Positions 38,500-63,235 of a DNA stretch of 64,000 nucleotides are shown piece by piece (within the stretch, counting starts at the first letter, position 1; each line of letters opens with the position of its first letter). Below the pieces are notes generated by a model. The model did no database searches, was not told the origin of the DNA, and saw only the letters and a list, made by a program, of their open reading frames with translations. Origin of the DNA: a virus; the IMG/VR virus record IMGVR_UViG_3300029319_000005, positions 83,377 through 147,376 of that record. The stretch is one strand, 5' to 3'. Both the position numbers and the translations under genes were made by a program.

Positions 38500-39390
38500 T
38501 TATCTAAAGTTGGCATAACCTATGTCAATAATAGCTATCTGTCCATTTTTTTCCATAATGTTTGAAGTTTTCAAATCATTAAAGATAATGCCATTGTCGT
38601 ATAAAAAAGTTAGTCCGGATGCAAGTTGGTTAAGATATAAACTTCTCGGGTCACTTAAAACTTTATTTGCGTGTTCTGTTGCCGACAGAGAGTCAGATAA
38701 AGTAGAATTATACATACCGACACTTAAGGTCCAAAATTCAGTAAAAAGTCTTTTTTGTAGTTCATCCCATCCTAAAGTATTAGAAATAGAATCAATTTTT
38801 GGTTCTATCGAGTCCCACTTATTGGAAGAAGGAGTTAAAACGATGGAATCCTTAGACAGGGCATTCAAAAATTGTTTTATAAGATTCTCTGCTTCAGATA
38901 AGTAAGATTCTTTCCACTGGTAGTAAAACTTATCTTTTTTTATTTTATGGAACATAAGCTCTGCTACATCAACCATTAATCTATTTGGATATTCTAAGTA
39001 AGAATATACAATGGCGTATCTCTGATTTTCCAAAGGTCTAAATTCTACGGGCAACTCTTGTGCTTTATAAATTGTGTAAACATTCGGGTGTTCTTTACCA
39101 GCTATCATTTTAGCGGCGCGATACTCTGTGTCATCCGACGTTATCTTCAACACTTTTTTATCAAACAAATAGGCAGAACCTTTTGATCCAGAACCAAGAA
39201 AATCAGGGTCTCCCTTTAGATCTCCCCATTTTTTAAATGATTCTATAGCCCTAGAAGTAAGAGGTATTCTTTTTTGTTCATCAGTTACTTTAGCTAAAGA
39301 ATCATTAATAAATCTTCTTCCGCTGTCTAATGTATTGATACGCTCGTCTAGACTTTTATATGCTCTCCATCCTGCAAAAATATCTCGCAT
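38500..39390 (-). CDS. protein-kinase-like protein with leader motif
   Basis: LGSGSKGSAY, VLKIT, DLKTSNIM, IIDIG; N-terminus WRAYKSLDE. Confidence 0.75.
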   Translation of the reverse strand: MRDIFAGWRAYKSLDERINTLDSGRRFINDSLAKVTDEQKRIPLTSRAIESFKKWGDLKGDPDFLGSGSKGSAYLFDKKVLKITSDDTEYRAAKMIAGKEHPNVYTIYKAQELPVEFRPLENQRYAIVYSYLEYPNRLMVDVAELMFHKIKKDKFYYQWKESYLSEAENLIKQFLNALSKDSIVLTPSSNKWDSIEPKIDSISNTLGWDELQKRLFTEFWTLSVGMYNSTLSDSLSATEHANKVLSDPRSLYLNQLASGLTFLYDNGIIFNDLKTSNIMEKNGQIAIIDIGYANFR

Positions 39391-39391
39391 G

Positions 39392-39976
39392 TTATTTCTC
39401 TATGTCTTCTAATAGACGAGATATCGCCCAGCGTTTATTACGAGAAAAATTCTCGTAATACTCTATTTCGGCAGCTTCTTTGAAATGAAATGGACGCCCC
39501 TTAACCCGCGACATAAATTCTGATTCTTCGCCCATCTTAATCCCACCAACATCCATTGTCTCACCAAAAGGGGGGTATTCATTGTCAGGCCTAGTTCCTA
39601 CAAGAAAAGCGTCGCTCGCGCCGCGAGGTATTAGAAGAACAGAGTCTTGCTCGTACTCAATGCCAAAATTTTCTATCGATTTAAAGAAATTAGGCTTATT
39701 ATGTTTGTTTACAACAAGCAGGCTCTCTTCTGTAACTTCTACTGCCTCTGGAGTTTCAAAGTTTTCAATAAATGAGCCCACAAGTTTAGCGACACCATAG
39801 CCTCTTTTGAGTAGACGAGCTTTTAATATTTGTCCTTTTTCTTTGTTCTCTTTTGCGGTATTTTCTGCACGATAAGCAGAAATGATAGCAGTGTCGTATT
39901 CTTTCATATGAGAGTAAAATCTAGATAAAGATGATTCTGCTAAAAATATTCTCCATTCATGTAGTATATCTTGCAT
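39392..39976 (-). CDS. SAM lyase (T3 SAMase-like) with leader motif
   Basis: ISAYR..EN..GSFIE..TEES..EYEQDSVL parallels T3 SAMase VSAFR..GCYRE..TEEK..EWEQDCVL (T3 sequence recalled from memory). Confidence 0.7.
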   Translation of the reverse strand: MQDILHEWRIFLAESSLSRFYSHMKEYDTAIISAYRAENTAKENKEKGQILKARLLKRGYGVAKLVGSFIENFETPEAVEVTEESLLVVNKHNKPNFFKSIENFGIEYEQDSVLLIPRGASDAFLVGTRPDNEYPPFGETMDVGGIKMGEESEFMSRVKGRPFHFKEAAEIEYYENFSRNKRWAISRLLEDIEK

Positions 39977-40047
39977 AATTTTTAGTGCCTCGCTAGTAAG
40001 TAGGGTTCGTCAAATAAAAGATATCTAATATATCTACTTACTATACT

Positions 40048-40665
40048 ATGAGCAAAGTCTCAACAAATAAGTCTAACATAGAAAAAGAAAAATTCAAGAA
40101 AAGATTTCAGAAAAGAACAATGTTAGAAATCTCCGCCTTAGTTCTTGAACTTGAAGAGGCTGAAGAGTTGGACATAGAGTACAGCAAAAAGTTTTCTGCG
40201 GACTTTAAGGATGAGTTAAAGTATAAAGCTGCTCTCTTAGACGAGATTGAAAATGCTCCTACAGAGGAGGAAAACATCTCAAAGTCTAAAAAGTCAGAGC
40301 CACATGATTTTATAAAAACTCTATACAGAGAAATAGCTAAAAAGACACATCCTGACAGATTTGGAGATGAGTACCAAGACCAATTTAAAACTGCCAGTGT
40401 TGCCTATGAAGAAGAGGAGTGGCTTACACTGCTAATGATAGCTGCCGATTTAAGTATTAACATGCCCCTCTTTGATCAAGATGCTCAACAAATAATAAGT
40501 AAAGAGATAGAACACAAAAGACGATTACTAGAAAAAAAGAAAGAGTCCCTAGTATGGGCCTGGGCTTCGTCGGATGACTGTCCAGAGACAAGGCGCAAAG
40601 CTAGGTCTTACATGGACATCGATGAAGATAAATTCCAAGAATTTTTAAAAAAAGACTCTATGTAG
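40048..40665 (+). CDS. J-domain-containing protein
   Basis: LYREIAKKTHPDR...FKTASVAYE. Confidence 0.75.
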   Translation: MSKVSTNKSNIEKEKFKKRFQKRTMLEISALVLELEEAEELDIEYSKKFSADFKDELKYKAALLDEIENAPTEEENISKSKKSEPHDFIKTLYREIAKKTHPDRFGDEYQDQFKTASVAYEEEEWLTLLMIAADLSINMPLFDQDAQQIISKEIEHKRRLLEKKKESLVWAWASSDDCPETRRKARSYMDIDEDKFQEFLKKDSM

Positions 40666-40918
40666 CACCATCAGAGAGGTCCGCAATTTCTTCTTCAGAG
40701 TCCTCTAATCTAGTGAAATGAACTTCCATAAAGCTGTCGTCCGTGAGCCAAACAGGCCTAAACTTTAGGGAATTGTTGTCCTCGCTAATCTCTTGTAAGT
40801 CTGGGTTGTGGTTTACGAGATAGTTAACCACAATCTTTTGTACTTGATCTTTTTCTAGAGAAATGCTACCAAGGTAGGTAACTTCTCCTTCAGCATTTTG
40901 TTCAGTATCGGTACTCAT
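40658..40918 (-). CDS. hypothetical protein
   Basis: ORF in small operon. Confidence 0.5.
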   Translation of the reverse strand: MSTDTEQNAEGEVTYLGSISLEKDQVQKIVVNYLVNHNPDLQEISEDNNSLKFRPVWLTDDSFMEVHFTRLEDSEEEIADLSDGAT

Positions 40919-40920
40919 TT

Positions 40921-41112
40921 TTAATCCTTATTTTCGTATTGTTTGTCTACTGCTGAAACAATTGACCACGTTTCAGATCCTTCTCTACGGTTATTGCACG
41001 CTACATAAGCTTCAGTGGAAGCTTGGGGGAAGGTATGTGCCTCTACAAGTATACTCTCTCTCTTACCAGTTGAAGAGCTTTGTATAATAAATTCAAATTG
41101 TTTAATTGGCAT
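40921..41112 (-). CDS. hypothetical protein
   Basis: ORF in small operon. Confidence 0.5.
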   Translation of the reverse strand: MPIKQFEFIIQSSSTGKRESILVEAHTFPQASTEAYVACNNRREGSETWSIVSAVDKQYENKD

Positions 41113-41116
41113 TTTA

Positions 41117-42049: not shown

Positions 42050-42457
42050 TTACTTTTCTTTAAGGTCTAGTACCCATTCGCCATTTACTTTCTTAGCACT
42101 TACTCTCATTCCAAGAAAATACCAACGCTCGAACACGCTAGCGTCTAACTCCGGTACAAGGCCTTTCTCAATGTCTCTAAAAAATCCAACTGCTCCCTGG
42201 ATAATCTGCGACTCAACCGAGTGGTCATCTCCAATCTCAAAAACTTTTTTACTCTTGTGCTTTATATCTAGCCATGCTACTGTGTCTGCCAATGTTTGTT
42301 TCATTCTTTTATTTTTGGCAATGTGGGCAGCATGATACAAATGCCCCTTTAGTGTATCAATATGGATTCCCATAAATGGGTGCCCACCGTAAGTTACCTT
42401 TGCGGAAGCGCTCACGGATATAAAACACAAAATTATAGCTAATATTAATTTTTTCAT
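42050..42457 (-). CDS. secreted hypothetical protein
   Basis: Signal peptide ending ASA. Confidence 0.55.
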   Translation of the reverse strand: MKKLILAIILCFISVSASAKVTYGGHPFMGIHIDTLKGHLYHAAHIAKNKRMKQTLADTVAWLDIKHKSKKVFEIGDDHSVESQIIQGAVGFFRDIEKGLVPELDASVFERWYFLGMRVSAKKVNGEWVLDLKEK

Positions 42458-43059
42458 TAGATTACTCCTCTATCCATCTTCTGGATTTGTAGCTTTATGT
42501 CTTCAGTATACACTAGTCTAGGATCTTTTTCCTCGTATAATGAAAATTTAGACTTATCAAAATCATCAATCGATAGGCTGACAACCATCATCTCTCCGCC
42601 GTGCCTATCGACGCTAGCTGCTGCATTACTTTCGGCTAATTCATAATTTCCCCATTCGCTTGGAGCAGGAACTCCGTTTTCAACTAATGAGTCTTTTAGT
42701 GCGGTCGACGTACCATAGAAAAGTTCAGTTATGTTGTCTAAACGCTTAGATTTAGGAGGATCGATGCCTTTAAAATAACTGGGAAGGCCCATTTCGCCTG
42801 TAGCTCTCCAATCTCCGCTGTTGACTGCTTCTAAGGCAGAATAGAGATCTATCTCTCCTCCCCCAAGACTATCAGTCCACGAGACGCCATTTTCATCTAC
42901 TTTTTCAATTTTAATGATAAGAGGCTTTTCCTCTGAAAACTCATGGTCTCGTATCACGGCACCAGGGACAATGCCAGCGGCCTCTAACTTCTGCAAGTAC
43001 TGTGTGCTAACTCTCGATTCTTTCAAAAACTTCCGCCACTCTGTTAGTAGTTTTTTCAT
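42457..43059 (-). CDS. leader-tagged protein with possible degenerate ADP-ribosyltransferase-like C-terminus
   Basis: MKKLLTEWRKFLKES; LFYGTS..SLVENG resembles LYHGT..I..xG. Confidence 0.45.
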   Translation of the reverse strand: MKKLLTEWRKFLKESRVSTQYLQKLEAAGIVPGAVIRDHEFSEEKPLIIKIEKVDENGVSWTDSLGGGEIDLYSALEAVNSGDWRATGEMGLPSYFKGIDPPKSKRLDNITELFYGTSTALKDSLVENGVPAPSEWGNYELAESNAAASVDRHGGEMMVVSLSIDDFDKSKFSLYEEKDPRLVYTEDIKLQIQKMDRGVI

Positions 43060-43676
43060 TCTTTTTTTACCAGTTCCTTATTTATGATATCATAGCCTTC
43101 CACAACTCCCACCTTTTCGTAATCAAAATCGGGGAGTAGAGCAATCTTTTGTTCTGGAAATTTACCATTTACAATAAATGAACAAGCTTGACCTACCACT
43201 TCTGTGAAAAGGGCTGGATGTGACTTAGGTGGCATTGTTTGTATGTGTGCATTATAAGAAGCAATTTCGCCTTTGGCATCGAACTTTGTACCTCGTTGGA
43301 TGTGAGACATGAAGTCGTGGACTGCTCTAAATTTTGCGTTTGTCTTGGGATCAAAGATATCGTGTTCTGCATCAAGCGTAGAAATTTTTAAAACACCATT
43401 CTGTTTCACATCTTGCTTTAATTCTTCTGCTGTAGCATAAGGATGTTCCTCAACAAACTCTACATCGATAACACCTTCAATTCTTTTAAACATCTTATCA
43501 ACAAAAGGCTTCATCGCTTCAAAATAGGGAACAGCGGCTGAATCAAACCTGGGCGCTTTAGCATAAGCTTCTGCAACCAACTGGCAATACTTATCCCAAC
43601 CATTTGGTCCGGGCTTAAGCATTAATTTTTCATCTAATACGACGAATTTACGCCAATTTTCAAGTAAGAGTTTCAT
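43056..43676 (-). CDS. leader-tagged protein with FRAVHDxxxH motif (possible metal-binding enzyme)
   Basis: MKLLLENWRKF; NAKFRAVHDFMSH..GE..ALFTEVVGQ. Confidence 0.55.
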   Translation of the reverse strand: MKLLLENWRKFVVLDEKLMLKPGPNGWDKYCQLVAEAYAKAPRFDSAAVPYFEAMKPFVDKMFKRIEGVIDVEFVEEHPYATAEELKQDVKQNGVLKISTLDAEHDIFDPKTNAKFRAVHDFMSHIQRGTKFDAKGEIASYNAHIQTMPPKSHPALFTEVVGQACSFIVNGKFPEQKIALLPDFDYEKVGVVEGYDIINKELVKKE

Positions 43677-43677: not shown

Positions 43678-44217
43678 TTACCATGCCTTACAAGACCAAT
43701 ATCTTGCTTTCCATTTAGGCCCAGGGTTTTTGCAATTATGTCGAGCCCTGAAAGATTTTCTAGCCTTTGGATTAGATTTTCTAATTTTCATATTAGGATC
43801 ACCGAAGTTTACTTTAACAACGTTGCCTTTTGCATTCTTAACATAGACCTTAGATTTTTTAACATCACCCTTCATAGGCTTATTTAATGTTACTTTGCGA
43901 CCTTGGTATTCTGCTTCTTCTAAAACCTCGCCTTCTGCGAGCATCTCATAGTAGGCTTGCTCGTCTACATCTTCGGTAGTAACTTTCTTTTGTTGCTTGG
44001 CTTTTTTAACTTTGCTTTTAAGACGATTCATATTATATTTACCAATCTTAGACAGCTTCGACAAAGCCTGCACCGCTGATGGACTACTATGCCCAGCCAT
44101 TATGGCATCGATTGCTTGTTTCTCTAGTTCAGCTATGTTTGGAGAATCGTCTTCACTTAACAAGGCATTAAGTTCTTCTTTTACAATTTTTCTAATCTGT
44201 TCTTTTGTGATATTCAT
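43678..44217 (-). CDS. leader-tagged protein with basic C-terminal domain (FGDP..SFRARHNC..YWSC)
   Basis: MNITKEQIRKIVKEEL; basic domain follows VLEE. Confidence 0.65.
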   Translation of the reverse strand: MNITKEQIRKIVKEELNALLSEDDSPNIAELEKQAIDAIMAGHSSPSAVQALSKLSKIGKYNMNRLKSKVKKAKQQKKVTTEDVDEQAYYEMLAEGEVLEEAEYQGRKVTLNKPMKGDVKKSKVYVKNAKGNVVKVNFGDPNMKIRKSNPKARKSFRARHNCKNPGPKWKARYWSCKAW

Positions 44218-44339: not shown

Positions 44340-45368
44340 TTATCCTTTTTTTCCTGCTTTAGATTTTTTGCCAGATTTTTTTGAGGTCCCACAATCAGAT
44401 GGTGTTGGGCGACAATGTGGATACTTTGCTCTTTTTTCGCCCTCTTTTCTTCCGCACGATTTGCAAGTTTTCCTACCAGTCTTCTCGTCTTTTCTACAGG
44501 TATTGCAGTCCACCCAGCCTTTTGATTTGCCTTTACCACCTTGTCGGGAAAACCAACCGTGTAGACCGGATTCTTTTTCTTTAGAGTAGTCAGTTTTCTT
44601 TTTCTTTTCTTCTAGCTCGTTCTCTTGAACGGGCACACAATTGGGAACCATACGATCGCCCTTTTTCTTCATCCCAACTTGCTCATATCCCTGCCAGCAC
44701 GCTTCACCTAATACGTTTTGTATTTCTTCTTCTACTATCTTTCTAATATCTTCTTTTACACCTTTCCAAATCTTTCCTTGTCGGCATTTGACCACTGCTC
44801 CGGATGCATATGCAGATGGCCAAACATCATACTTACGCTTTGCTATTCTAGTGCAGCGGTCCCCCTTCTTCTTTTTCTTCTTTTTCTTCTTCTTGCGTTT
44901 TTTTTCTTCTAGCGAATCTTGATTTTTTTCTTGCCATTCCGCAGACTTATCATCTTCTGTAATTGGGCCGCCTTTCGCCCATGTCCGGCAAGACCTGGCG
45001 GAGTGGCATTTAAAGTGGTGCATCCAACAGTACCCAAGCTCACCATCATCATCGGATGTTTCTCCAGGCATGCAGTCTTTCATTCTTGGTGAGATATCAA
45101 ATGCTACACAATTGCCACATAATGATGCCTTAGCGGCCTTTTCATCGGTATTCCAATACTCAGCTATGTCTTTCCAGTAATCCCCCGGTTCATCGACGTT
45201 TAAAGGGCCATATTGAATATGATCTTCGTGGATAGCTGCATCGCGGTTCTTTGTGTTTAATTTTAGATCTTGAGTTGCCGGTGGGCAAACAAGCTCCGTT
45301 GCTGCTTTAACAACAACATCAACACTTTCTTTTAGATATCTTTGCCACTCTGTTAACAATTTTTTCAT
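44340..45368 (-). CDS. leader-tagged multi-module basic/Cys-rich protein
   Basis: MKKLLTEWQRYLKES; modules separated by LEE/LGE; internal IRKIVEEE. Confidence 0.7.
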   Translation of the reverse strand: MKKLLTEWQRYLKESVDVVVKAATELVCPPATQDLKLNTKNRDAAIHEDHIQYGPLNVDEPGDYWKDIAEYWNTDEKAAKASLCGNCVAFDISPRMKDCMPGETSDDDGELGYCWMHHFKCHSARSCRTWAKGGPITEDDKSAEWQEKNQDSLEEKKRKKKKKKKKKKGDRCTRIAKRKYDVWPSAYASGAVVKCRQGKIWKGVKEDIRKIVEEEIQNVLGEACWQGYEQVGMKKKGDRMVPNCVPVQENELEEKKKKTDYSKEKESGLHGWFSRQGGKGKSKGWVDCNTCRKDEKTGRKTCKSCGRKEGEKRAKYPHCRPTPSDCGTSKKSGKKSKAGKKG

Positions 45369-46993
45369 TATTCATTTACTCCCTTTGGTAATCCTAAAAG
45401 TATCTTCGTTTCTTTAGAACCGCCAATATCCCTTATATACCAACCATTATAATTAGGATATTTACCTTCAGGATGACCACCTAGCCATGTTATTTCTTTA
45501 CCTAACACTCTTTCGACATCTTCTTGACTATCCACAAACGGGACACCGTACTTGGTTATCATAATGTGAGCAATTGCTTTTGACATCTCAGAAAAATATC
45601 CAGGAGTATTCAATAATTGCGCTGACTTATCTATATAAGCAGTTATAGCTTCTTTGCTTCCATCGTGGCCCGCAACAGTCATCTTTTTGCCTGCTGGCTT
45701 GTTAGAAGACACGCGCAAAGCGTCTGGCTCCGGATCAGAGTCTATATCAGTTGCAATGTATTCATCGTATTTGCCCGGTAAATCCGATGCAGATCTTATA
45801 TTCGAATGTCCACCAATTTTCTTATAGGCATTATTTATAAGATTATATAACTCATCGGCTAGGTTTATTTCGCCGCCACGATCTCTAGCAGCAGAAGCAA
45901 TATCTTCGATAGGTATATCAAGCCACTGGCCTTTGGGGGCGTCGTAGTCTGCCCATTTATTTTCATTCAAATTAACTTCTCTTTGAAATAGAAAGTATAC
46001 AGGCACCTGTTCAAGACCAAGTTCCTGTGCAATTTGATGTCTATGGTTCCCCTCGCCAATTTTGGCTACACCATTCGATCCAAATTGAATAAGCAAGGGC
46101 TCACGTATACCGTTTTCTTTTATGTCCGCCCTTAACTCTTCGTATTTGCCAGTTTTTATTCTACGTAGCCGGTCCTTAACGTACTCTCTGTAAGGGGCGA
46201 GTTCTTCAGTTGGGTAATAAACGGGATCACTGGAATCGACGTTACTTTCCATGATAGTACCTCGATTTTCAACCCAACATTTTAAAAGCTGTTCAATGGA
46301 AGGAGGATTATTTTTATTAATTGTATAATACGCTTTGCCATAAGGGTCTATTTCGGGACAAACAAAGTTATCTCTTCCGACATCATCGTATGTAAACGAT
46401 TCATTCAAAAACTTCCGCCAATCTACTCTCCCTACTAGTTGTAAGATCTTGGCAACGTTTTTGTGACTGTTTGGCTGAGCAATAATTTTATAAGCCTTTA
46501 AGTCAGCATTTGCCTTTTGGGCCAAAAATGCCCTGTGGTTCCCATCAGTAACTTCACCATTTTCATCAATAGTAATGGGAGGAAATTTGGAAAAATCAAC
46601 TTCGCGTGGGTCGGCTGGATTATTTCTAAAATAGAGCGCATCTTTCCCGGCGGCTTTATCTTTGATGTATTGTTGATATTTTCTCTCTCGTTCTTTTACC
46701 GCCTCATCTGATATTTTATAATCACTTGGACTTACTAAAAACGGGCCTTCTAAAATATATTTGTCTATGCCATGTATAAATCGTTTCAATTCTGGGTATG
46801 AGTCACGACCTTCGTTGTAATGATAATCTAATAATCGCTTTTGCTTTGGGAACATGCCTATTAATAGTTGGTGGATTTCGTTAGCTTTTTTGGGATCTCG
46901 CAAAGCATTACCTACATTTTCCCAATCACTAGTTTTCATCGAATGGATCTCTTCATTCAAAAACTTCCGCCACTCTGTTAGTAGTTTTTTCAT
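45368..46993 (-). CDS. leader-tagged protein with two ParB/Srx-like domains and a third unknown domain
   Basis: PPITI..DGNHR and EPLLI..EGNHR, separated by WRKFLNES. Confidence 0.7.
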   Translation of the reverse strand: MKKLLTEWRKFLNEEIHSMKTSDWENVGNALRDPKKANEIHQLLIGMFPKQKRLLDYHYNEGRDSYPELKRFIHGIDKYILEGPFLVSPSDYKISDEAVKERERKYQQYIKDKAAGKDALYFRNNPADPREVDFSKFPPITIDENGEVTDGNHRAFLAQKANADLKAYKIIAQPNSHKNVAKILQLVGRVDWRKFLNESFTYDDVGRDNFVCPEIDPYGKAYYTINKNNPPSIEQLLKCWVENRGTIMESNVDSSDPVYYPTEELAPYREYVKDRLRRIKTGKYEELRADIKENGIREPLLIQFGSNGVAKIGEGNHRHQIAQELGLEQVPVYFLFQREVNLNENKWADYDAPKGQWLDIPIEDIASAARDRGGEINLADELYNLINNAYKKIGGHSNIRSASDLPGKYDEYIATDIDSDPEPDALRVSSNKPAGKKMTVAGHDGSKEAITAYIDKSAQLLNTPGYFSEMSKAIAHIMITKYGVPFVDSQEDVERVLGKEITWLGGHPEGKYPNYNGWYIRDIGGSKETKILLGLPKGVNE

Positions 46994-47409
46994 TCGTATA
47001 CCACGCTCATTCCCATAGAAGTCTCTGTTGACTTGCCAGAGTTTCTACCAAGCGCGTGCAAGACTTCAATTGGATCATATCCAACTATTATTCTATCGTT
47101 AACAACAAATAGTGGAATAGCGTTTAATGTGCCTTCGTATCCTATCTGTTTTGCGATCAACTTAAGTTGTTCTTTAACAGCCTTATTTTCAAAATCTTTT
47201 TCAATAAAAGTAACATCGTTATCAATTAAAAATTTCTTTGCTGTTTTACACCATCCACACCAAGGAGCAGAATAAAGTATGACAGTATTTTTTGGGATAT
47301 TTATCTTTTGAACTGTTACTATAACGTTCTGTCTTAGAGGTATAGAACTTTCCGGAATACAGGAAGAGGTTAGAAATAAGGAGAGTATTGCTAAAATTAT
47401 TTTTTTCAA
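46990..47409 (-). CDS. glutaredoxin-like lipoprotein
   Basis: LTSSC lipobox; LYSAPWCGWC; IPLF..IIVGY. Confidence 0.8.
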   Translation of the reverse strand: MKKIILAILSLFLTSSCIPESSIPLRQNVIVTVQKINIPKNTVILYSAPWCGWCKTAKKFLIDNDVTFIEKDFENKAVKEQLKLIAKQIGYEGTLNAIPLFVVNDRIIVGYDPIEVLHALGRNSGKSTETSMGMSVVYE

Positions 47410-47412: not shown

Positions 47413-48612
47413 TTAACCCTCTTTATGTTTAAAATAGTTAACTTGTTTTTCTCTCTTTTCCGCGCCCTTTTTTGAATCGTAGCAACCGAGATTACGACCT
47501 GTTTTTGCAATCAAACAATACTTTCCATCTTTCTTTCTAATGACTTCAAATAAGCCTCTTATTATAGCCTCTCTTAACACTTGACGTATTGTAATAGAGC
47601 TAGATTCTCTTAAGAGACTCTCAAACATCTCAGAGGGATGGTGTTGTCGCGAAATATCTTTACCAGTGATTTTACCCATCCACTGATCCCTAAATTTTCC
47701 TGCCAAATCTGCGTCGCTTTTTGATGCTCTTTTGGAGTAGTCATTTGGAATTTTAAACTTTTTACCTCCGGGCATTATCACTTCAAGGTCACCCTCCAGG
47801 TTAATTTTTTTAGCCACAATCTCGACCCAAGTGTCCCAAAGAGACTTCGATACGCTAGCTTCAGTAGTTTTATTCATAGCAGCAATTTGCCTTAAGAACT
47901 CGACATACTTCTCAGCCATCTTAACTCCGCCTTTTGTAAGCTGATATAAGTTAGAGCTTGTGTCCAGCTTCTTTCCAGCGGTTTTAAAGCCGACACGACC
48001 GTCTTTGTCTGTTTTTATTAATTTACCTTCAGGATCAAGACCTTTATAAATATTAAGATTGATGCTGTCTATGCATCCTAGTCTACCTATTATTAGCTGT
48101 GAAGCAAAGGCTGCTTTTGGCAAGCCAAGACCCGGAACTCTTAAAAACTTAAGATAAGTATTGAACATTGCCTCTTCTTTTTCGATGCTTCCGGATTTAG
48201 CATTATTATATTTGTTTATGTCTGACATTATAGAGGAATACATTTTTCCTCGATTGTTCCAAATATAATCGATTGCTCTCTTCCTGAATCCTAGTATTAA
48301 CATTTTTATAGACTGCGGGAAGTCTTGGAATTCTTCTCCGGTTAATAGGCCATCATTTTGTTTGATGTATTTCATCAAGATAGGAAATCTTGGAACAACT
48401 TCATACCATCTCTGTTGCTGAGTTGCGATAACGAAAATTAACATTTCTGCTAAATTTTCTGGGCTCTCTTGTGCATAAGAGTTGATGGCGGGATTGTAAA
48501 TACAAAAGCCACTGTCACCAATGTCTGCAACATTTAAGACTAGCGGATCCGGTTCGTCGAGTCTGTCTTCTTCTTTTAAGAACCGCTTCCAAGATTCAAG
48601 TAGTAATTTCAT
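47413..48612 (-). CDS. leader-tagged HhH (DNA glycosylase-like) protein with C-terminal micro-domain
   Basis: MKLLLESWKRFLKEE; LRVPGLGLPKA..CID. Confidence 0.55.
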   Translation of the reverse strand: MKLLLESWKRFLKEEDRLDEPDPLVLNVADIGDSGFCIYNPAINSYAQESPENLAEMLIFVIATQQQRWYEVVPRFPILMKYIKQNDGLLTGEEFQDFPQSIKMLILGFRKRAIDYIWNNRGKMYSSIMSDINKYNNAKSGSIEKEEAMFNTYLKFLRVPGLGLPKAAFASQLIIGRLGCIDSINLNIYKGLDPEGKLIKTDKDGRVGFKTAGKKLDTSSNLYQLTKGGVKMAEKYVEFLRQIAAMNKTTEASVSKSLWDTWVEIVAKKINLEGDLEVIMPGGKKFKIPNDYSKRASKSDADLAGKFRDQWMGKITGKDISRQHHPSEMFESLLRESSSITIRQVLREAIIRGLFEVIRKKDGKYCLIAKTGRNLGCYDSKKGAEKREKQVNYFKHKEG

Positions 48613-48651
48613 ACTATTAAATAGTATTTAAATCAATAAGATGACGTAAAA

Positions 48652-50621: not shown

Positions 50622-51275
50622 TTATTTACACCACTTTTCCATAAGCAGTTTGTTAATGTTTTTGTTTTTCCACTCTGTGAGTGTTGTTTCTTCTTCAACA
50701 GACTCTTCTTCTACAACTTCCTCTTCCGTGACCTCTTCTTCCTCTAGGGGCTTCAAACGATCTGCGGGCGTATCAGAAGGCGCTCTGTCTGGCGAGTCTG
50801 TTTTTGTTTTTTCTAAAAGAAAGCTTCTGACGACTTCTCTAATTTTGTTTTCTAATGTTGATTCCATTTTATTTGAGTCCTCCCAATCACGAAAACACAG
50901 GTTTCCTATTAAATAGGCTTCTTCTTCCATTTTTCTCAAATGTTTGTTATTTTGTGCATAGCCTTCGTTAGTTTCAATTTCTCCATCAAACTCTCCTCTA
51001 CAATTTTGCGAGTGATGTACAAGTTCGTGAGAAAAAGATCTTAAAATATCTTTGATATGTCTGTTATCTGTATATATAACAATTTCTCTATCACTAGGGC
51101 TATAATATGCTGTCTTGCCAAGAGGATTTTGAGAGTTCTCCTGATCAGACACAAAAGATAAACGCAGAGGGCCTGAAAAATTCATTGTCCTCTGCGCGTA
51201 GGGGTAAAATTTATTTACTAATCCTTCTAAAATTGATAAATCTTTGTTAGTCTTGTTTTGAATTTTCAAGCTCAT
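50622..51275 (-). CDS. HExxH metallopeptidase-like protein with acidic tail
   Basis: LRSFSHELVHHSQ..MEEEAY. Confidence 0.65.
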   Translation of the reverse strand: MSLKIQNKTNKDLSILEGLVNKFYPYAQRTMNFSGPLRLSFVSDQENSQNPLGKTAYYSPSDREIVIYTDNRHIKDILRSFSHELVHHSQNCRGEFDGEIETNEGYAQNNKHLRKMEEEAYLIGNLCFRDWEDSNKMESTLENKIREVVRSFLLEKTKTDSPDRAPSDTPADRLKPLEEEEVTEEEVVEEESVEEETTLTEWKNKNINKLLMEKWCK

Positions 51276-51870
51276 CTTTAATCATTGCCATTAGGCCTTC
51301 TTTTGTAATTTTCAGATCACTATCTATATTCTCAGCCATTGCACCAAGACCTCTAGTTGTGGCTGTGCCGCCTCTTTTAATGGCGTCTCCACCAGAAACC
51401 CCACGACCACGCGGTCTACGACCAGCGCCCAGACCAGGAGTAGTATCTTGTGAGGCCGCAATGTCAGCAGCCAACTTAGGATCTTGAATAAGCTCAAGAG
51501 CATCAACTAGGTTAGCTAATCTTGTATTTCCGCCCTTTGACCAAGACAACACTCTTTTAATCGAAGAAGAAAGCTCTGGGCTCAATTCAACTAGCTGATC
51601 TAGGTCTAAACTGCCTAGTCTTTTAACCATCTTCTTGCGATCGTTTGCAAAAGCGCTTGCAAAATCTTTTACAGCGTCTAGAGCAACATCGGCTGCATTT
51701 TGTGCAGCTTCTGAAGATAACTCTTCGGGAGTTTTAGCAAAAGCGTCTTTAGCCGCCCCAAATCCCCTCTTTAATCGATCCATAAAGCCTTCATCAATAG
51801 AATTCTCTTCAACAACTCTATTAAATTCTTCTAAAATGATGTTTTTCAACTCAGATTCAGTGATTTTCAT
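51247..51870 (-). CDS. leader-tagged hypothetical protein (motif at both ends)
   Basis: MKITESELKNIILEE and C-terminal LKITKEGLMAMIKDE. Confidence 0.6.
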   Translation of the reverse strand: MKITESELKNIILEEFNRVVEENSIDEGFMDRLKRGFGAAKDAFAKTPEELSSEAAQNAADVALDAVKDFASAFANDRKKMVKRLGSLDLDQLVELSPELSSSIKRVLSWSKGGNTRLANLVDALELIQDPKLAADIAASQDTTPGLGAGRRPRGRGVSGGDAIKRGGTATTRGLGAMAENIDSDLKITKEGLMAMIKDELENSKQD

Positions 51871-51950: not shown

Positions 51951-52706
51951 TTACCCACCCGGAGGTGCAGATTTTGATCTTTTATAAGATGGTTTTTTGC
52001 TATATGGTGGCATATTAGCTTGATTCCCGTGCTTAATTAGGCGTTTTTTCATTCTAGAATGCTTACTTTTTACCATTTGTTGGTATTTTTCTATCTCTTC
52101 TAGCTTATCAAAGTGCTTTTCGACTCCATTTTTCACCAAAAATGCTTTAATTAACACTTCAGGATGGTCGATTTCTAGCGATTTAACGGCATAAAGGTTC
52201 TCAATCATGTCATCCCAAAAGAATACCTCCGAAAATCCCTTAGAAAGCTGTTTTTTGACCCATGAAGCCTTTCTTTCGGGGCCTTCCCCTTCTAAATGAG
52301 AATATTTTGGTGAATTTACAGCAACAATCTCAACGTCGACGTCAAATTCTTCTTGCAAATATGATTTAATAGGCTTCCAAACCTCCCTTGCGGTCAAAAC
52401 TACAATTTTGTCGTCATTTGAGAGCTTCTTTATTGTTCTTATCATTAGATTTAGCGTTTTTTCGATTGGTTTAGGGTTTATTATTGTTTTAAACTCACTA
52501 AAATCAAAGTTATCCTCGGAGATATCCGAACCAGACAGCTTTAAGCGCTCCCATTCCTCTGGCTCTAACCTTTTTCCACTAGATTTGTGAATTATTTGTC
52601 CGTCTGTGTGTACCAAAGTATTATCAAAGTCAAAAGCAAATAGCTTCCTCCTCTTCTTTTGATCACTTTCAAGTAATTTGCGCCAATTTTCTAGTAATTC
52701 TTGCAC
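51951..52706 (-). CDS. leader-tagged HAD-family phosphatase with basic tail
   Basis: (GTG)QELLENWRKLLES; FDFDNT, LTAR, FWDD. Confidence 0.75.
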   Translation of the reverse strand: MQELLENWRKLLESDQKKRRKLFAFDFDNTLVHTDGQIIHKSSGKRLEPEEWERLKLSGSDISEDNFDFSEFKTIINPKPIEKTLNLMIRTIKKLSNDDKIVVLTAREVWKPIKSYLQEEFDVDVEIVAVNSPKYSHLEGEGPERKASWVKKQLSKGFSEVFFWDDMIENLYAVKSLEIDHPEVLIKAFLVKNGVEKHFDKLEEIEKYQQMVKSKHSRMKKRLIKHGNQANMPPYSKKPSYKRSKSAPPGG

Positions 52707-52707: not shown

Positions 52708-53532
52708 TCAAGAGGCCTCTTCAACTTCTTTAAGATAGTTTTGCCAATCTCGCTTTAAATTTTCGTTAATAGACATGAGCCTATCATAAGAATTATCTCT
52801 TAGATCGCTAAGTTTACCAAGATAATTGTTTCTTCTTAAAACTTTAAACGCCAAATTCTCTGGGGAGTACGCTCCGGCTGGGCTTTCTAGGCCGCATTGT
52901 CTAAATTTTCTTATTTTTTGTTTTAAAAGCTCGGAAGAAACATACGCTTCCCTTAATTTGTTTTGTCTATACAGCCTTTCGATGTCATCTACGAGGTCCA
53001 TAAGATTTTGCGCTTTCATTTTTGTGGTCTTAAGATCCAATTCAGGCTTATCTTTAGTTGGTTTAACAACCCATTCGTCTTCTAATAGAGAATAGATACC
53101 GGTCGAGATATGCGGCTCGTCAATGTCCTGCACATAGATTTCAACCTCAAAGCCTCTAAGTTTAATATCATGGCGATCATTCCAATTGCCGCTCTTTCCA
53201 CGAAAGAATTCTCTCACTAGTTCCTCATTTTCATCCAAATCATCAAAATCCACCATGACGTGAAGATCTAAATCCGAGTACTGTGACCAATTATAGTTCG
53301 ACAAAGAACCTGTAAGCACAATATCTTTTATCTCAATGTCCCCTAGACCAAGGTTAGACATAAAATTTTTAGCAATTTCAATTAGTTTAACAGCTATTTC
53401 GGGTCTGATCTTATTATCGTCGGTCCAGATGTCGCGGTTAAGTTCATCTTTGAGTTTAAAGCTCTCTAAGTCTATTTTTTTATTGTCTTGTAGGAACTCT
53501 TCCCAAAGCTTTTTGTTTATTTCCATAATCAT
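52708..53532 (-). CDS. Pol-beta-superfamily nucleotidyltransferase
   Basis: LTGSL..SDLDLH..VEIY; leader-like LWEEFLQD and C-terminal WQNYLKE. Confidence 0.8.
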   Translation of the reverse strand: MIMEINKKLWEEFLQDNKKIDLESFKLKDELNRDIWTDDNKIRPEIAVKLIEIAKNFMSNLGLGDIEIKDIVLTGSLSNYNWSQYSDLDLHVMVDFDDLDENEELVREFFRGKSGNWNDRHDIKLRGFEVEIYVQDIDEPHISTGIYSLLEDEWVVKPTKDKPELDLKTTKMKAQNLMDLVDDIERLYRQNKLREAYVSSELLKQKIRKFRQCGLESPAGAYSPENLAFKVLRRNNYLGKLSDLRDNSYDRLMSINENLKRDWQNYLKEVEEAS

Positions 53533-56097: not shown

Positions 56098-56502
56098 TTA
56101 TCCGATAAAAGACTTTTTAATGACATTCTTGTAGTTTCTAGAGATGTCATGATTGTCAATGTCGGATTTTGATATGAAGCGATACTCTGTGTGTTCGCCA
56201 CTTAATGATATTATACCGTCAGGTAGCGGGAGTTTATAATAAAATTTATGTGCGTTTTTTTGTACTAACTCGGCAACGCTGGTATCTATGTAAAGCCCAG
56301 TCTCTTCTTTAACTTCTCTTTTTAGTCCTTGCAACACTGCTTCTCCTTGGATAAGATGCCCACCAGGGAGATCCCATTTTGAATTTTTTGCTTTTTTTAA
56401 CATAAGAATTTTTTCATCAACGTATATAACTGCTTTAGCGACAATTTTCGTGTCGCCCTCTAACTCATTTAAAAAGTTGTTCCAACTTTTAAACTTTTTC
56501 AT
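56098..56502 (-). CDS. leader-tagged NUDIX hydrolase
   Basis: MKKFKSWNNFLNE; PGG..GE..LKREVKEETGL. Confidence 0.85.
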   Translation of the reverse strand: MKKFKSWNNFLNELEGDTKIVAKAVIYVDEKILMLKKAKNSKWDLPGGHLIQGEAVLQGLKREVKEETGLYIDTSVAELVQKNAHKFYYKLPLPDGIISLSGEHTEYRFISKSDIDNHDISRNYKNVIKKSFIG

Positions 56503-57846: not shown

Positions 57847-58125
57847 TTAACAGTCCGCCTTTTTCTTCGTGACCATCATCGCCTTTACAGCGGTATCAGT
57901 ATCTAAATCATCTAGAACTCCCAGCCACGCCTCTTTCTCAGCGTTAGTCATTGCGTCCATCATGGCCCACAGGCTATCAATCTCATCTTGCATTTGTAGG
58001 TTTCTATCTAAGAGTCTTGTATTCTCTTCAATTAAAAGCTCTAACTCTTTTTGGAGCGTATCAATTAATTCTTCCAATGTTAAGCCTTCTAATGTTCTTT
58101 TTTCTTCAGTCATATCATCTATCAA
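57847..58125 (-). CDS. coiled-coil protein
   Basis: Heptad pattern. Confidence 0.5.
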   Translation of the reverse strand: MIDDMTEEKRTLEGLTLEELIDTLQKELELLIEENTRLLDRNLQMQDEIDSLWAMMDAMTNAEKEAWLGVLDDLDTDTAVKAMMVTKKKADC

Positions 58126-61100
58126 ATACTACTGGCTGATCATCTGCTAAATGGAATCCTATATTTCCGGCGTGGACATCTGCCGTTTCTTCGTCGAATA
58201 CCAAATGGTCTCCTTTTTTAAGAGCAATTTCTAATACCTCTTTGAGCATCTTAGCTAAAGTAGCCGTGCCATAACCGTGCTCTGACTCTTTAGGAAGTCC
58301 AACGTTGCTTTTATGTATAATTTCTAAAAGATATTTTACGTATTGAATTTTATCTTTACTATTTGGATTTTCCTTAATAGGTTCTATATCTCTATCATCA
58401 GGATGCACGTTGGGATTATATTGAAAAGCTAAATTCTGAAGGAGCGTGTGTACGTCATCAAAATGCGCCGCAGCAATTAGGGGGCTTGCGCCCTTTTGCC
58501 TAGCCCACATTTTTAGAGGAACTACTTGTCCGATCTCTGCCCAAGCAACATCAAAATTACTAGTCTCTAAATTGCCTGAGCCGAAGACAGCAAGTTCTCC
58601 TCTTCGTGATGCCCCTGTAAATTGGTCGCTTTTCATTTCTTCGTACCATTCTAGCTCTTCTTCCGCTCCTCGGATCCCACCAGAAAAAAGCTTAAGAGCA
58701 TGGCCGTTATCTAACTCAAAAACGACACCATAGGCCCCAGCGCCCAGAAGATCAACAATCTTGTTTGATTTCAACGGGTTATCATTTGGAATTTCGTTAA
58801 CAACATCTGTAAAAACAGAAAGATTTTTCTTGCGAAACTCATCCGGATATTTTGCTACTTTTAATTTTCCTATGTCTATATCAAAATAGTCCGGGATACG
58901 AGCCATCATGACATTGTCGAAAATCTCATGAATATTGTGAATATAGGTTTCATTACCTTTCTCCAGTGCTCGCTGGGCATATGCCTTTTCTTTTTCTGTA
59001 CTAAATCTTTCTTGCTCTTTGGCTTTAGCCAATTTTTTTAATGCGCTATAAACTTGTAAATCTTTTTCTTTTCTTGAACGCTGTTCCTTTACAAATTTTT
59101 TCCATTTTTTAAATTGCTTTACAACTTTTTGCTCGTAAATAGCTAATTTTAAACGACTATTTTTCGTCTCTTGTAAAGAGGCACCAAACTGTGCTGTCGC
59201 ATCTTGAGAAGCTATGTGATCATCATTAGGATCGTATTGTGGTCGAGGAGTGTCAAAAGTATTATCTGTCATTCTAAGTCTGGCAATTCGATCTACACGA
59301 AACATTCTCCACCCAGGAAGATTGTCTGGCGTGTCTGATGCGCCTTGAACTTGCCATGCACGGACTACTGGATTCCCCGACTGGTAGTGCGTACCAAGAA
59401 CGACAGGTTCAATAGCTCTAGCTCCTCTGCTAACTGTATTGTCTCCCTCATAAAATATAATAACAACTCTTTTGTCGTTTATTGCTTGCCCTAAGTTATT
59501 GTATTTATTAGATAATCCTAAGAGAGTTGTTTGTTCTTTAAGTTTCTTCTTCCACTTCTTATGGAAGTTTTCTTTTTTTGGAAAGTTTGGACTGCTTTCA
59601 ATTTTCTTTAAAAGTTTTTCTCTCTTGTTTGTCTCCCAGTTCCCATCAGTCATACCCGCCCTCTCCCAAGCGGCGTCTAATAGTTCTTTTTGTATTTTGT
59701 AAACTTTCATTAAAGTTTTCGGGCTAGTCTTGGGGTTTTCTATAACCGCTAATGCTACATCTTCTCCTTCTGCCGGTGCGGGTGATAGCTTTGCACGACG
59801 TCCTGAAGGAAGAGGTTTTTCCGAGAATCTAGCTGGCATTGATACAATTTTATCAATTATTTGTGGGCTGCTATTAGGATGGGCCATTATTTGTTTCAAA
59901 TCAGCTATCTCGTCATGCCCGAGGGCGCTCATTCGTTCCACAATGTCGTTGAGGAACGCCTCATCCAAGTTTGGATGTTTAAGTATTTCTTCTCGCGCTT
60001 TCCAAGAAAAATCTATATTGTAATCACTTTTACCGAAAAAGATTTTTTTAACAATATCAAGCGGCATGTTTGGATGTTTTAAAAGCGAAATGTACATTAG
60101 ATTGCTAGTGAGCTTTCTAACGTTTGGATTCTTTTTAAGATTAAATTTATCCAGTATCCTTACGACAGTTTCGGTAGGCGTAGAAGGATTTTTTATGAGT
60201 GCCCCCGTGACGACAAATTGAGCCATCCCGCCATCACCACGAACTCGACGCTTTTTGTCACCAGAGGTTACCCCCATTGTCTCCTCGGCCTTTGTCAGCA
60301 GACTAGGAGGGGTTCCTGGGTTAGCAAACAAATCTCTCAGACGTTCAGGATTACCATCTTTGTATATCCTAGTTGCTTCCTCTTCTGATATATTTGGATC
60401 CCTAGCAAGCAAGACTTCATCATACGTTGAGATAATTTTATATTTTTGTCTAGCTTTCGTCTTACTCAACAATTGATGAAGTTGGACGATCTTTTCGTCC
60501 GGAATCTCGTAATCTCTTCGGTCCATAAATTGTTCTGTACCGTAATGAAACTGAAACTTGTTCTCAGGATCATCTTTCGGAACGAAAACGAATAAGGGAT
60601 CGCCAGGCTTGTAGTATTGAGCAAAATAATCCAACCCAGGTGCCGCAGTACACCACTCGGTACCTTTTCCAAGCTCACAGGCTGCTCCTTTGTTGTGTAT
60701 AGCGGCAATGTACCACTCATCATCATCCCTGAATACTTCTGTGCCTTCCGCAGCATCTAAAAATTTCTGCTTTTCTTGATACGCTTTAATGTCCGGCCAA
60801 GCCTTGTCAGTAATATCAAGTAACTGGTCTGGACTTTGGATTCTATTTAAGTCCTTGGTTCCCATAAAATCTGAATACTGGAAGAACATTTCAAGACTCC
60901 GATTTACAGAGAAAAGGTAATTGGTCATATCAGAAGCATCAATGTCGAGTAGTGCTGTATCAAGTACATGGCTAGCCTCTGTGGACACGATATGGTCTCG
61001 AAGTGATGAAACGGCTTGCGCCATGGTTGTTTTTACCTTTACATTTTTTCGAAGCAAACGAACAATCCAAAGTATTGCTGCGCCCTTTTGATTATCCGTT

Positions 61101-61423
61101 ATGTCTTGCGGTATCACCGTTTCTTCAATAGTGTCTGCTATCATACCCTTAAGTTCAGGACCGTACCTATTTCGGAATTTTTTTCCTGGCATCATCAGTG
61201 CATATGTAGCCACGATTTCCTCTAATTCTTCAAGCTCTTCCGAGGCACCTGTCCAACCGTCACGCGCATTCTTCGCATTGTCGTAGTTTTCCTTAGCTAT
61301 TTGAAGCATGTCGTAGGCCCAGGCGTTAAGAATCTTATCCCCAGCCGAGCCCCTTAGATTTTGCATTGCATCTGCCGAGGAAACCTCGACTAAAAAATTT
61401 TTCCACTTTTCTTGAAAGTTCAC
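58115..61423 (-). CDS. leader-tagged multi-domain protein: GTxWC domain, NP/HPN helical repeats, WYL domain, kinase-like domain
   Basis: GKGTEWCTA; NPxTP repeats; RAIEP..WRMFRVDRI; LGAGAYGVV..ALK..DVHAGN..VFD. Confidence 0.75.
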   Translation of the reverse strand: MNFQEKWKNFLVEVSSADAMQNLRGSAGDKILNAWAYDMLQIAKENYDNAKNARDGWTGASEELEELEEIVATYALMMPGKKFRNRYGPELKGMIADTIEETVIPQDITDNQKGAAILWIVRLLRKNVKVKTTMAQAVSSLRDHIVSTEASHVLDTALLDIDASDMTNYLFSVNRSLEMFFQYSDFMGTKDLNRIQSPDQLLDITDKAWPDIKAYQEKQKFLDAAEGTEVFRDDDEWYIAAIHNKGAACELGKGTEWCTAAPGLDYFAQYYKPGDPLFVFVPKDDPENKFQFHYGTEQFMDRRDYEIPDEKIVQLHQLLSKTKARQKYKIISTYDEVLLARDPNISEEEATRIYKDGNPERLRDLFANPGTPPSLLTKAEETMGVTSGDKKRRVRGDGGMAQFVVTGALIKNPSTPTETVVRILDKFNLKKNPNVRKLTSNLMYISLLKHPNMPLDIVKKIFFGKSDYNIDFSWKAREEILKHPNLDEAFLNDIVERMSALGHDEIADLKQIMAHPNSSPQIIDKIVSMPARFSEKPLPSGRRAKLSPAPAEGEDVALAVIENPKTSPKTLMKVYKIQKELLDAAWERAGMTDGNWETNKREKLLKKIESSPNFPKKENFHKKWKKKLKEQTTLLGLSNKYNNLGQAINDKRVVIIFYEGDNTVSRGARAIEPVVLGTHYQSGNPVVRAWQVQGASDTPDNLPGWRMFRVDRIARLRMTDNTFDTPRPQYDPNDDHIASQDATAQFGASLQETKNSRLKLAIYEQKVVKQFKKWKKFVKEQRSRKEKDLQVYSALKKLAKAKEQERFSTEKEKAYAQRALEKGNETYIHNIHEIFDNVMMARIPDYFDIDIGKLKVAKYPDEFRKKNLSVFTDVVNEIPNDNPLKSNKIVDLLGAGAYGVVFELDNGHALKLFSGGIRGAEEELEWYEEMKSDQFTGASRRGELAVFGSGNLETSNFDVAWAEIGQVVPLKMWARQKGASPLIAAAHFDDVHTLLQNLAFQYNPNVHPDDRDIEPIKENPNSKDKIQYVKYLLEIIHKSNVGLPKESEHGYGTATLAKMLKEVLEIALKKGDHLVFDEETADVHAGNIGFHLADDQPVVFDR

Positions 61424-61438
61424 GTTTTATCTCCGGTG

Positions 61439-61747
61439 TTACTCAGACTTAGGCCAAGGTGTACCAGGCCCTTTCCAACCTTTCGCGTACATCGAACGAA
61501 AAAAGTTATCAGCTTGCTCCTGTCCAGACAAACGGTCTTTAACAAGAGGATTTGGCTTAGGCTCGCCATGCTCATCCTCGTAAGCGTCCTTCATTTTTTC
61601 CATCTCGTGGTCGCCATGTTCGTCTTCATCAAGCTCGATGCCCTCTTTATAGCTAGGATTTACGTCGGCTCCCATATTTGCAACCTCTTCGAACTTAGCT
61701 AGCTCTTCTTTGATTATCTCTACCAATCTATTTTTCTTGATTATCAT
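61439..61747 (-). CDS. leader-tagged acidic protein
   Basis: MIIKKNRLVEIIKEEL. Confidence 0.6.
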   Translation of the reverse strand: MIIKKNRLVEIIKEELAKFEEVANMGADVNPSYKEGIELDEDEHGDHEMEKMKDAYEDEHGEPKPNPLVKDRLSGQEQADNFFRSMYAKGWKGPGTPWPKSE

Positions 61748-61949: not shown

Positions 61950-61981
61950 AATAATTAGTTCCTAAAATTCTAATTACTTAC

Positions 61982-62230
61982 ATGGATATAAAGGTTGGTG
62001 ATTTAGTAAGTATAAAAAGCAAGTACCCAGGAAGAAATTTTAACATACATTATCTTCCTTGTTTAGGGGTGATTACTAAATTATTCCAAAGCGCGACACT
62101 CAAGACAGCCAAGTCAAAGCATTACTACGAAGATTACGCAGAGGTAGAGTGGATCAAATTTGAAGAGTTTAAAGGAAGGCCCGATCAAGTGCAGCCAGTC
62201 AACAACCTAATCGTAGTCTCGGAATCCTAA
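61982..62230 (+). CDS. small SH3/KOW-like phage protein
   Basis: MDIKVGDLV..GVI..VEW; CTAATTA 5 nt upstream. Confidence 0.55.
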   Translation: MDIKVGDLVSIKSKYPGRNFNIHYLPCLGVITKLFQSATLKTAKSKHYYEDYAEVEWIKFEEFKGRPDQVQPVNNLIVVSES

Positions 62231-62299
62231 ATTTTTTTTTCCCGGTATTTTTGGCGTTGCCAATTATAGGCATAGGTTTAAAATGGCAGGAATAGCCGT

Positions 62300-62533
62300 T
62301 TATTCGCCCTTGTTGGGCTTTTGACGCTCTATAGGCCATGGTTTCTCGTTCGGATCATTGCCGTTCTTTATATCGGCCATTATCTGTAGCAACTGTTTCT
62401 CTGTTTTCTCTTCAAGTAAACGGTTAGCTAGTCGATCGACGTTTGCCTTTAGCTTATCAATTTCTTTTTTTAATTTGTCTACAATCTCGGAATGGTTTTC
62501 CTGTTGTAGTTCCCCCGTATTGTTTTCTTCCAT
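62300..62533 (-). CDS. coiled-coil protein
   Basis: CTAGTTA 5 nt upstream. Confidence 0.55.
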   Translation of the reverse strand: MEENNTGELQQENHSEIVDKLKKEIDKLKANVDRLANRLLEEKTEKQLLQIMADIKNGNDPNEKPWPIERQKPNKGE

Positions 62534-62576
62534 AATAATAACTAGTGGGTATAGGGATTAAGAGCCTTTAGGGTCT

Positions 62577-62882
62577 TTATAAACCCATCTTATGGGCTGG
62601 ATGATTCCGCATGGAAGGCAACTTCAGGATATCCACCAGTATAGACTGTGCCCCTTGACTTAAAGACCACCAATCAGATCGCTTGCTAGCTAAAATGTCT
62701 CTTGCCACCTGCTGTTCTTTGGGGAGCATCTTGTTAAGCAGGTAATCGACATCTTGTTGTGCTGCTTCTTCATCGCTTAATTCGGGCGTCCCGTCTGTTC
62801 CTATATCGATGTCGAAGGTTTCGCTAAGCTTGCTTATCTCTTCTTTGATTATCTTTTTTAGTTTTGATTTGGTGAGTTTCAT
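62577..62882 (-). CDS. leader-tagged hypothetical protein
   Basis: MKLTKSKLKKIIKEEI. Confidence 0.65.
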   Translation of the reverse strand: MKLTKSKLKKIIKEEISKLSETFDIDIGTDGTPELSDEEAAQQDVDYLLNKMLPKEQQVARDILASKRSDWWSLSQGAQSILVDILKLPSMRNHPAHKMGL

Positions 62883-63235
62883 AATGATTTCTTCTGCTCA
62901 AAATAGCCCTGTTTGATACTAATTCCTAGCTCGTCGGCTAAAGCTTCTAGAGCCTGAGCCCTAACATCATACTCGGCATCTTCTAGGTCTTCTACAGCCG
63001 CCCGGACCCAAGGTAGCTCCCCATACGACACCGCACCAGTATTATAGTAGCCCCAATCACCTTTGTAAGGGTCCCCTCTCTTTGTGCGCATGTCTATGTC
63101 TTGCTTAGCCCCTGCTAAGCTAGCGTATTGAGGGTCGTCACGGGTCATATCTCGGCCACGAACGTCTGTTATCTCTTCAACCTTAGCTAGCTCTTCTTTG
63201 ATAATTTGTCTTAGTTTTGATTTAGTTAATTTCAC
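62879..63235 (-). CDS. leader-tagged hypothetical protein
   Basis: MKLTKSKLRQIIKEEL. Confidence 0.65.
   Translation of the reverse strand: MKLTKSKLRQIIKEELAKVEEITDVRGRDMTRDDPQYASLAGAKQDIDMRTKRGDPYKGDWGYYNTGAVSYGELPWVRAAVEDLEDAEYDVRAQALEALADELGISIKQGYFEQKKSL

Follow-up and report, generated by a model that had tools for sequence, protein, structure and literature searches.

We report here the analysis of a set of genes of an uncultured marine T4-like phage (IMG/VR virus record IMGVR_UViG_3300029319_000005) which encode proteins with unrelated bodies behind one of two N-terminal leaders of 14 residues. The window analyzed comprised 64,000 nucleotides (positions 83,377 to 147,376), that is, the final 64 kb of a record of 147,376 bp in total, and window coordinates are used unless genome coordinates are indicated. 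Eleven proteins with such a leader had been noticed in a preliminary description of this DNA. The observation is real and larger than first described, given that there is a second leader class and that leader copies are also found inside proteins. Entirely by inference, and with a probability of roughly 0.55, we consider the leaders to be propeptides for targeting to the prohead core, equivalent in function to the capsid targeting sequence (CTS) of bacteriophage T4. The genome under study was labeled G0 and the related contigs referred to by name G3, G5, G6, G8, G11, G14, G20, and G25; the three genomes mentioned below are G0, G5, and G8.

Two leader classes with a common register

Leader A, of 14 residues, has the consensus MKKLLTEWRKFLKE and was found at 11 genes of the window, which are those named in the preliminary description. 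Its tryptophan is residue 8 in nine of them and residue 7 in the other two (the NUDIX hydrolase and a 1102-aa protein). The start codons of three of these genes were corrected, to GTG at 52706 (HAD-like protein), to the second ATG at 53526 (nucleotidyltransferase) and to ATG at 56502 (NUDIX). Leader B, with the consensus MKITKSQLRQIIKEE, is a second class which starts five further genes of the window and two outside it. Both classes have the same register, with hydrophobic residues at positions 8, 11, and 12 followed by Lys13 and Glu14, so that [L/I]-x-Glu closes both leaders at residue 14. The targeting-type positions are occupied by Trp or Leu (residue 8) and by Phe, Tyr, or Ile (residue 11), and the majority residue at position 12 is Leu or Ile. 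Only K2 and E14 reached a conservation of at least 90% (29 tagged proteins, two relatives). Tagged genes account for about one ninth of those in the genome.

A strict leader-A pattern gave 8 N-terminal matches, all between 39.4 and 61.4 kb of the window, and none at gene starts elsewhere in the 147-kb genome. When a leader model in the form of a position matrix was applied to the genome and its relatives, the three genomes gave 31 matches, compared with 0.45 for shuffled proteins. Of the 31, 28 were within the first 25 residues. The bodies behind the leader are unrelated, as had been claimed, since Pfam and PHROG assigned them to differing families or to none: a Pkinase fragment, an S-adenosylmethionine (SAM) lyase, a weak ParB_N match, a NUDIX domain, a weak nucleotidyltransferase match, and several bodies without family.

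Among the 17 homologues of the SAM lyase, 13 have the Trp leader, two begin downstream of it, and the other two have a different N-terminus, which still ends in I-N-E. The AF2 model, built from 17 homologues, has its first low-confidence stretch precisely at residues 1-14 (pLDDT <50), which are predicted to form a helix apart from the fold.

Distribution among viruses and cells

The tag is spread within a clade of large phages. A back-translated leader-A pattern matched 53 IMG/VR stretches, with the start codon exactly four codons upstream in 40 of 62 matches and with differing bodies behind it. The same pattern matched 100 stretches in 596 Gb of cellular genomes, of which only 2 had the N-terminal register and 0 a Met-Lys start. 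Leader B was found in at least 120 viral stretches. All tag-bearing viral records are fragments of large phages, and nine related contigs, with G+C contents of 33-46%, contain 5-17 tagged genes each, mainly clustered. A protease of the S77 family is present in 10 of 30 leader-A records and in 20 of 28 leader-B records; considering only records at least 90% complete, it is present in 2/2 and 5/5, respectively (7/7 together). It must be noted that a protein search limited to the first 40 residues gave 30 candidates only and has no census value. A search of the full-text literature for the leader-A core found no relevant paper.

Head genes and the putative cleavage motif

The genome has a head module of T4 type, located outside the window, with matches to Portal_T4 (6e-77), Peptidase_S77 (4.7e-32; genome 45222-45863), and Gp23 (1e-74). 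The prohead protease, which had been said to be absent from the window, is thereby located. The closest cultured relatives of the capsid protein, all distant, are those of Microcystis phage Mel-JY01, Flavobacterium phage immuto, and Rhodothermus phage RM378. The capsid propeptide retains the Leu-Leu-x-x-Trp ... Leu-Leu-Glu-Gly pattern of the T4 gp23 propeptide, with conserved L-L-E and L-L-K-E sites near the aligned T4 cleavage site. Besides, the N-terminus of the protease resembles leader A, the small gene directly after the protease encodes a leader-B-like N-terminal peptide in G0, G5, G14, and G3, and a 101-aa gene between portal and protease likewise has a leader-B-like start. The tripeptide [L/I]-x-E is less frequent in the cargo bodies of the three genomes than the genome norm (ratio 0.77, z=-2.9), with nine control motifs undepleted. 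In a replicate set of seven further contigs the ratio was 0.84 (z=-1.8), and [V/M]-x-E was also lower (0.82).

These data bear on a rival view, in which the leader is not a cleaved signal for the capsid interior but a helix that docks onto some other assembly, such as a different virion part, a hub encoded by the phage or a chaperone. In favor of this, the leader is a fixed N-terminal amphipathic helix on unrelated bodies, but the near-invariant Glu14 with Leu or Ile at position 12 fits a Glu-specific protease, head-module proteins have the leader-like starts indicated above, and no partner gene is conserved within the island, so that we regard a docking helix as unlikely. In this regard, a dedicated partner gene in the island was sought and rejected, as most of the untagged genes there lack conservation in the relatives. 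It is very improbable that the leader serves to be recognized by a modifying enzyme, as happens in RiPP-like or radical-SAM systems: no radical-SAM gene was found in the genome, and the radical-SAM alternative was rejected on this ground, and no conserved untagged enzyme lies alongside the tagged clusters.

The head module also contains a gene for a 71-aa basic protein resembling ribosomal protein bS21 (L003:4354-4569, that is, genome 44354-44569, minus strand). The equivalent place in Mel-JY01 is occupied by an annotated RpsU gene.

Modular cargo and probable exchange of leader copies

The tagged proteins are modular. A 342-aa protein of the window has three parts which G8 encodes in separate genes, of which one has leader A and two begin in the manner of leader B. 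The NUDIX hydrolase has its homologue in residues 1417-1532 of a tagged protein of 1868 aa in G5, and in G25 the SAM lyase follows another module, from which an internal leader copy separates it. The basic domain at the C-terminus of a 179-aa protein is preceded by leader B here and by leader A in G11 and G20, and is found as a stand-alone, untagged protein in pelagiphage Kolga. Fused cargo occurs in a few proteins (342, 541, 1102, and 1868 aa), while most tagged genes are single-domain. Cargo modules fuse and split at leader copies, which we count in favor of targeting to the prohead core.

The interchange of leaders on the same cargo is relevant to whether the leader could be a membrane-targeting amphipathic helix which keeps the enzymes on the infected cell's inner membrane. 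As read directly from the sequence, Leu4, Leu5, Trp8, Phe11, and Leu12 do form one hydrophobic face with Lys/Arg flanks. Leader B is far less hydrophobic, yet replaces leader A on the same cargo, and neither the conserved Glu7 and Glu14 nor the depletion of [L/I]-x-E in the bodies would be expected for an anchor. Membrane targeting is accordingly quite improbable in our estimation.

At the DNA level, the starts of genes 42457..43059 and 45368..46993 are identical over 38 nucleotides, and a canonical version of the leader DNA recurs in G0, G5, and G8, which together point to exchange through the tag. The internal leader copy of the 541-aa protein (46397-46424) has 93% DNA identity to the leader. 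It could be argued from the identical gene starts, the recurrent canonical version, and the location of fusions and remnants at leader copies that the repeated start serves above all as a cassette of DNA (a recombination patch, a favorable translation start or both) with no protein sorting. Nevertheless, synonymous codons differ among leader copies at conserved Leu, Arg, Phe, Ile, and Glu positions, and many copies differ in this way with the peptide kept, which indicates selection on the peptide and contradicts a pure DNA cassette; the peptide is also kept in contigs of 33-46% G+C. We judge the cassette explanation to be improbable, marginally more so than membrane anchoring. Recombination through the tag is known for the internal protein genes of T4, and exchange of this kind is therefore compatible with sorting.

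Tandem leader copies in different frames are found at 52708-52750, at the C-terminal end of the nucleotidyltransferase, and at 52647-52706, at the start of the HAD-like protein. This junction looks like the scar of a leader-to-leader recombination event.

Proposed mechanism and comparison with known systems

Under the prohead-core targeting proposed here, the leader, as an amphipathic helix, would dock freshly synthesized cargo onto the scaffolding core during formation of the head shell. The S77 (gp21-type) protease would then cut after Glu14 and, in fused cargo, at the internal leader copies. The freed enzymes and small basic proteins would remain in the head with the DNA, and would enter the host at infection for counter-defense or takeover. 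The preliminary description had proposed a T4-like tag on a much larger enzymatic toolkit. All computational checks run fit a CTS-like propeptide, and to that extent the proposal stands; the sequences show the tag with its fixed register, its occurrence throughout a clade, the protease and head genes, and the modularity of the cargo, whereas docking, encapsidation, cleavage after Glu14, injection, and late timing are what we infer.

In T4, the CTS is formed by the 10 N-terminal residues of the internal proteins. Targeting depends on its residues 4 and 7 and processing on residues 8 and 10, and cleavage by gp21 takes place after L/I-x-E (PMC9026906). Trp8, Phe11, Leu12, and Glu14 of leader A align exactly with residues 4, 7, 8, and 10 of the CTS. 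The internal proteins of T4 have been described as diverse defense proteins with only the CTS in common (PMC3012670). Both systems have a short N-terminal tag on otherwise unrelated proteins, with hydrophobic or aromatic residues at -6 and -3, Ile or Leu at -2, and Glu at the cut or putative cut. Both genomes encode a gp21-family protease together with T4-type portal (gp20) and capsid (gp23) proteins, and in both the tag DNA is apparently a recombination patch. In contrast, the tag has 14 residues and two classes here against 10 residues in T4, and there are 16-18 tagged genes per genome against 3-4. Moreover, the putative cargo described here is mostly enzymes, some of them very large and some fused with internal tag copies. 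The longer tag, its two classes, the many more and larger enzymatic cargoes, and the fused forms would make this a new variant relative to the T4 system.

T4 loads its Alt ADP-ribosyltransferase (ART) into the head; the protein is trimmed by gp21 and then enters the host by injection. An ART-family domain (ART-PolyVal) likewise stands behind leader A in the related genome G8, although it has no detectable homology to Alt and no ART match was obtained in the window. The packaged and injected repertoire, known or proposed, includes T4 Alt, P1 DdrB, and the polyvalent proteins (PMC5512222), and the cargo set described here overlaps it. With the polyvalent proteins (Iyer et al., 2017, PMC5512222) it shares effector domains (ART, ParB-like DNase, and others) and, putatively, a late-gene context, and delivery with the DNA and processing into units have been proposed for both. 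They differ in that the polyvalent proteins have two to fifteen effector domains per polypeptide, while here there are a few fused proteins and most genes are single-domain and carry an address tag. In addition, the embedded peptidase of the polyvalent proteins (MPTase or papain-like) was not seen in Pfam scans here, and processing would fall to the head protease. In phiKZ and SPN3US, a diverged homologue of gp21 cleaves many inner-body and ejection proteins after Glu (PMC9026906). The propeptides there are longer, with no single conserved 14-mer among them, and the phage lineages differ.

Tagged genes of the window and their cargo

All tagged genes of the window are located on the minus strand, as nearly all genes are. 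The first of them (38500..39390) encodes a 296-aa leader-A protein with Trp8 and a protein-kinase-like C-terminal part (Pkinase, E=2e-9 at residues 244-294), and is followed by the 194-aa leader-A SAM lyase (39392..39976; PF23780, E=4.7e-14 from residue 31). A 200-aa leader-A protein (42457..43059), whose first 38 nucleotides are those shared with the gene starting at 46993, has a body without known family. Next to it, a 206-aa leader-A protein (43056..43676) belongs to phrog_3170 and has an orthologue 89% identical in contig G6; its residues 34-181 have 40% identity to a mycobacteriophage cluster-C protein, the similarity beginning past the leader. The 179-aa leader-B protein (43678..44217) ends in the small basic domain mentioned above, and the C-terminal 79 aa of the protein are homologous to gp56 of Pelagibacter phage Kolga. 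The 342-aa leader-A fusion of basic modules (44340..45368) has an internal leader-B-like copy near residue 208. The 541-aa leader-A protein (45368..46993) has a ParB-like domain (ParB_N, E=4e-4, and ParB PHROGs) and its internal leader copy is at residue 192, and a 399-aa leader-A protein (47413..48612) gave a weak lead only, to HhH/Ogg-like glycosylases.

Further along, a 207-aa leader-B protein (51247..51870) was identified by its leader match, with CTATTTA 40 nt upstream. The 251-aa leader-A HAD-like protein with the GTG start (51951..52706) has a weak match to PHROG 415, and the leader-A nucleotidyltransferase-like protein (52708..53526) matches phrog_36119 (E=1.8e-42), has a tagged orthologue in G5, and bears a leader-like remnant at its C-terminus (residue 263). 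They are followed by the leader-A NUDIX hydrolase (56098..56502; E=3.9e-12) and the 1102-aa leader-A protein (58115..61423), which contains further leader copies at residues 624 and 774 and, between them, a WYL match at residues 642-718. Three small leader-B proteins, all recognized by leader matches, complete the set: 102 aa (61439..61747; CTACTTA 25 nt upstream), 101 aa (62577..62882), and 118 aa (62879..63235; CTATTTA 30 nt upstream).

As to the cargo names given in the preliminary description, SAM lyase, NUDIX, and the kinase-like part were recovered, the ParB and nucleotidyltransferase matches are weak, and HhH is only the weak lead indicated above. PHROG and Atlas searches with the bodies mainly gave families of unknown function. 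In the relatives, ART-PolyVal was above the cut-off in the tagged G8 protein, and there were a weak GNAT match and NUDIX. No peptidase family turned up among the tagged proteins in Pfam scans.

Several other features of the island were observed. Small Cys-containing basic modules at 43678-43920 and 44340-44900 are common to pelagiphages Kolga and Aegir (about 75% DNA identity) and are also found in a 696-aa protein of cyanophage S-CAM9, which suggests a widely exchanged family of DNA-binding-like domains. The untagged genes at 42050-42457, 46990-47409, and 53539-55437 encode lipoprotein-like signal peptides; one of their products is thioredoxin-like, and another, of 632 aa, has metal-binding repeats of the MopE type. 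Immediately to the left of the island there is a gene for tRNA-Thr (TGT; 37737-37810, minus strand). A phage-encoded tmRNA gene with a predicted tag peptide of 13 residues (48652-48961, minus strand) is directly upstream of the largest tagged operon.

Putative late promoters

The motif CTAnTTA, which the preliminary description had reported at the start of most tagged operons, was located upstream of them: CTACTTA at 39997..40003 (minus strand) precedes the operon of the SAM lyase and the kinase-like protein, and CTATTTA at 48618..48624 (minus strand) heads an eight-gene operon (48612-42050). In G0, G5, and G8 it immediately precedes the genes for sheath, tube, scaffold, capsid, and baseplate proteins, and also the tagged operons. 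Its strand bias is 50 versus 22 sites in G0, 59 versus 7 in G5, and 43 versus 16 in G8, and no site was found in the block of replication genes (genome 8.2-33 kb). This distribution fits a late promoter. A scan for sigma-70 promoters was barely above shuffles and hence uninformative. Sites of the ACTATTTA type, for instance at window positions 33679, 12242, and 383, were observed upstream of PhoH, structural, and island genes in the three genomes, and are a candidate for the late-promoter consensus of the phage clade.

Assessment and implications

Several points weigh against the targeting of the tagged proteins to the prohead core. The likeness to the CTS of T4 consists of a short motif with no demonstrable homology. 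Leader profiles gave nothing meaningful against T4, the peptide being too short to show homology, and a weak T4 match falls inside trna.3 and not in an internal protein gene. With these profiles the tag was not found in T4, S-CAM9, HTVC008M, or Kolga (12 matches were obtained in the positive control, G005), and immuto and Mel-JY01 gave weak partial leader matches only, with no leader A; as the tag was not found in the cultured phages searched, there is no cultured model. The link between the S77 protease and the tag may simply reflect one clade. Each genome would have 16-18 cargo species, among them proteins of 1102 and 1868 aa, a load far above that of T4. Late timing would follow only from the motif shared with structural genes, and the cleavage motif is modestly depleted in the cargo bodies, less so in the replicate contigs, which is suggestive but not decisive. 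Finally, the SAM lyase of T3 works as an early-expressed enzyme, and packaging is therefore not required for its function.

In its full extent, the proposal is that a clade of abundant uncultured marine T4-like phages labels a whole injected arsenal (16-18 proteins per genome) with a 14-residue tag, that the head protease trims this tag and splits fusions at the internal copies, and that the tag DNA drives the exchange of cassettes. The arsenal would include SAM lyase, NUDIX, ADP-ribosyltransferase, ParB-like nuclease, kinase-like enzymes, and DNA-binding basic proteins. We hold this complete picture to be plausible but at slightly less than even odds. Injected proteins act before phage gene expression and therefore decide the first minutes of the encounter with host defenses, and they are known for only a few model phages, because their discovery needs virion proteomics. 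If the proposal is true, virion-delivered effectors could be predicted from metagenomes alone. A tag readable in the sequence would allow candidate injected counter-defense enzymes of uncultured marine phages to be cataloged, and would offer for engineering a second natural tag for cargo loading, beside that of T4.

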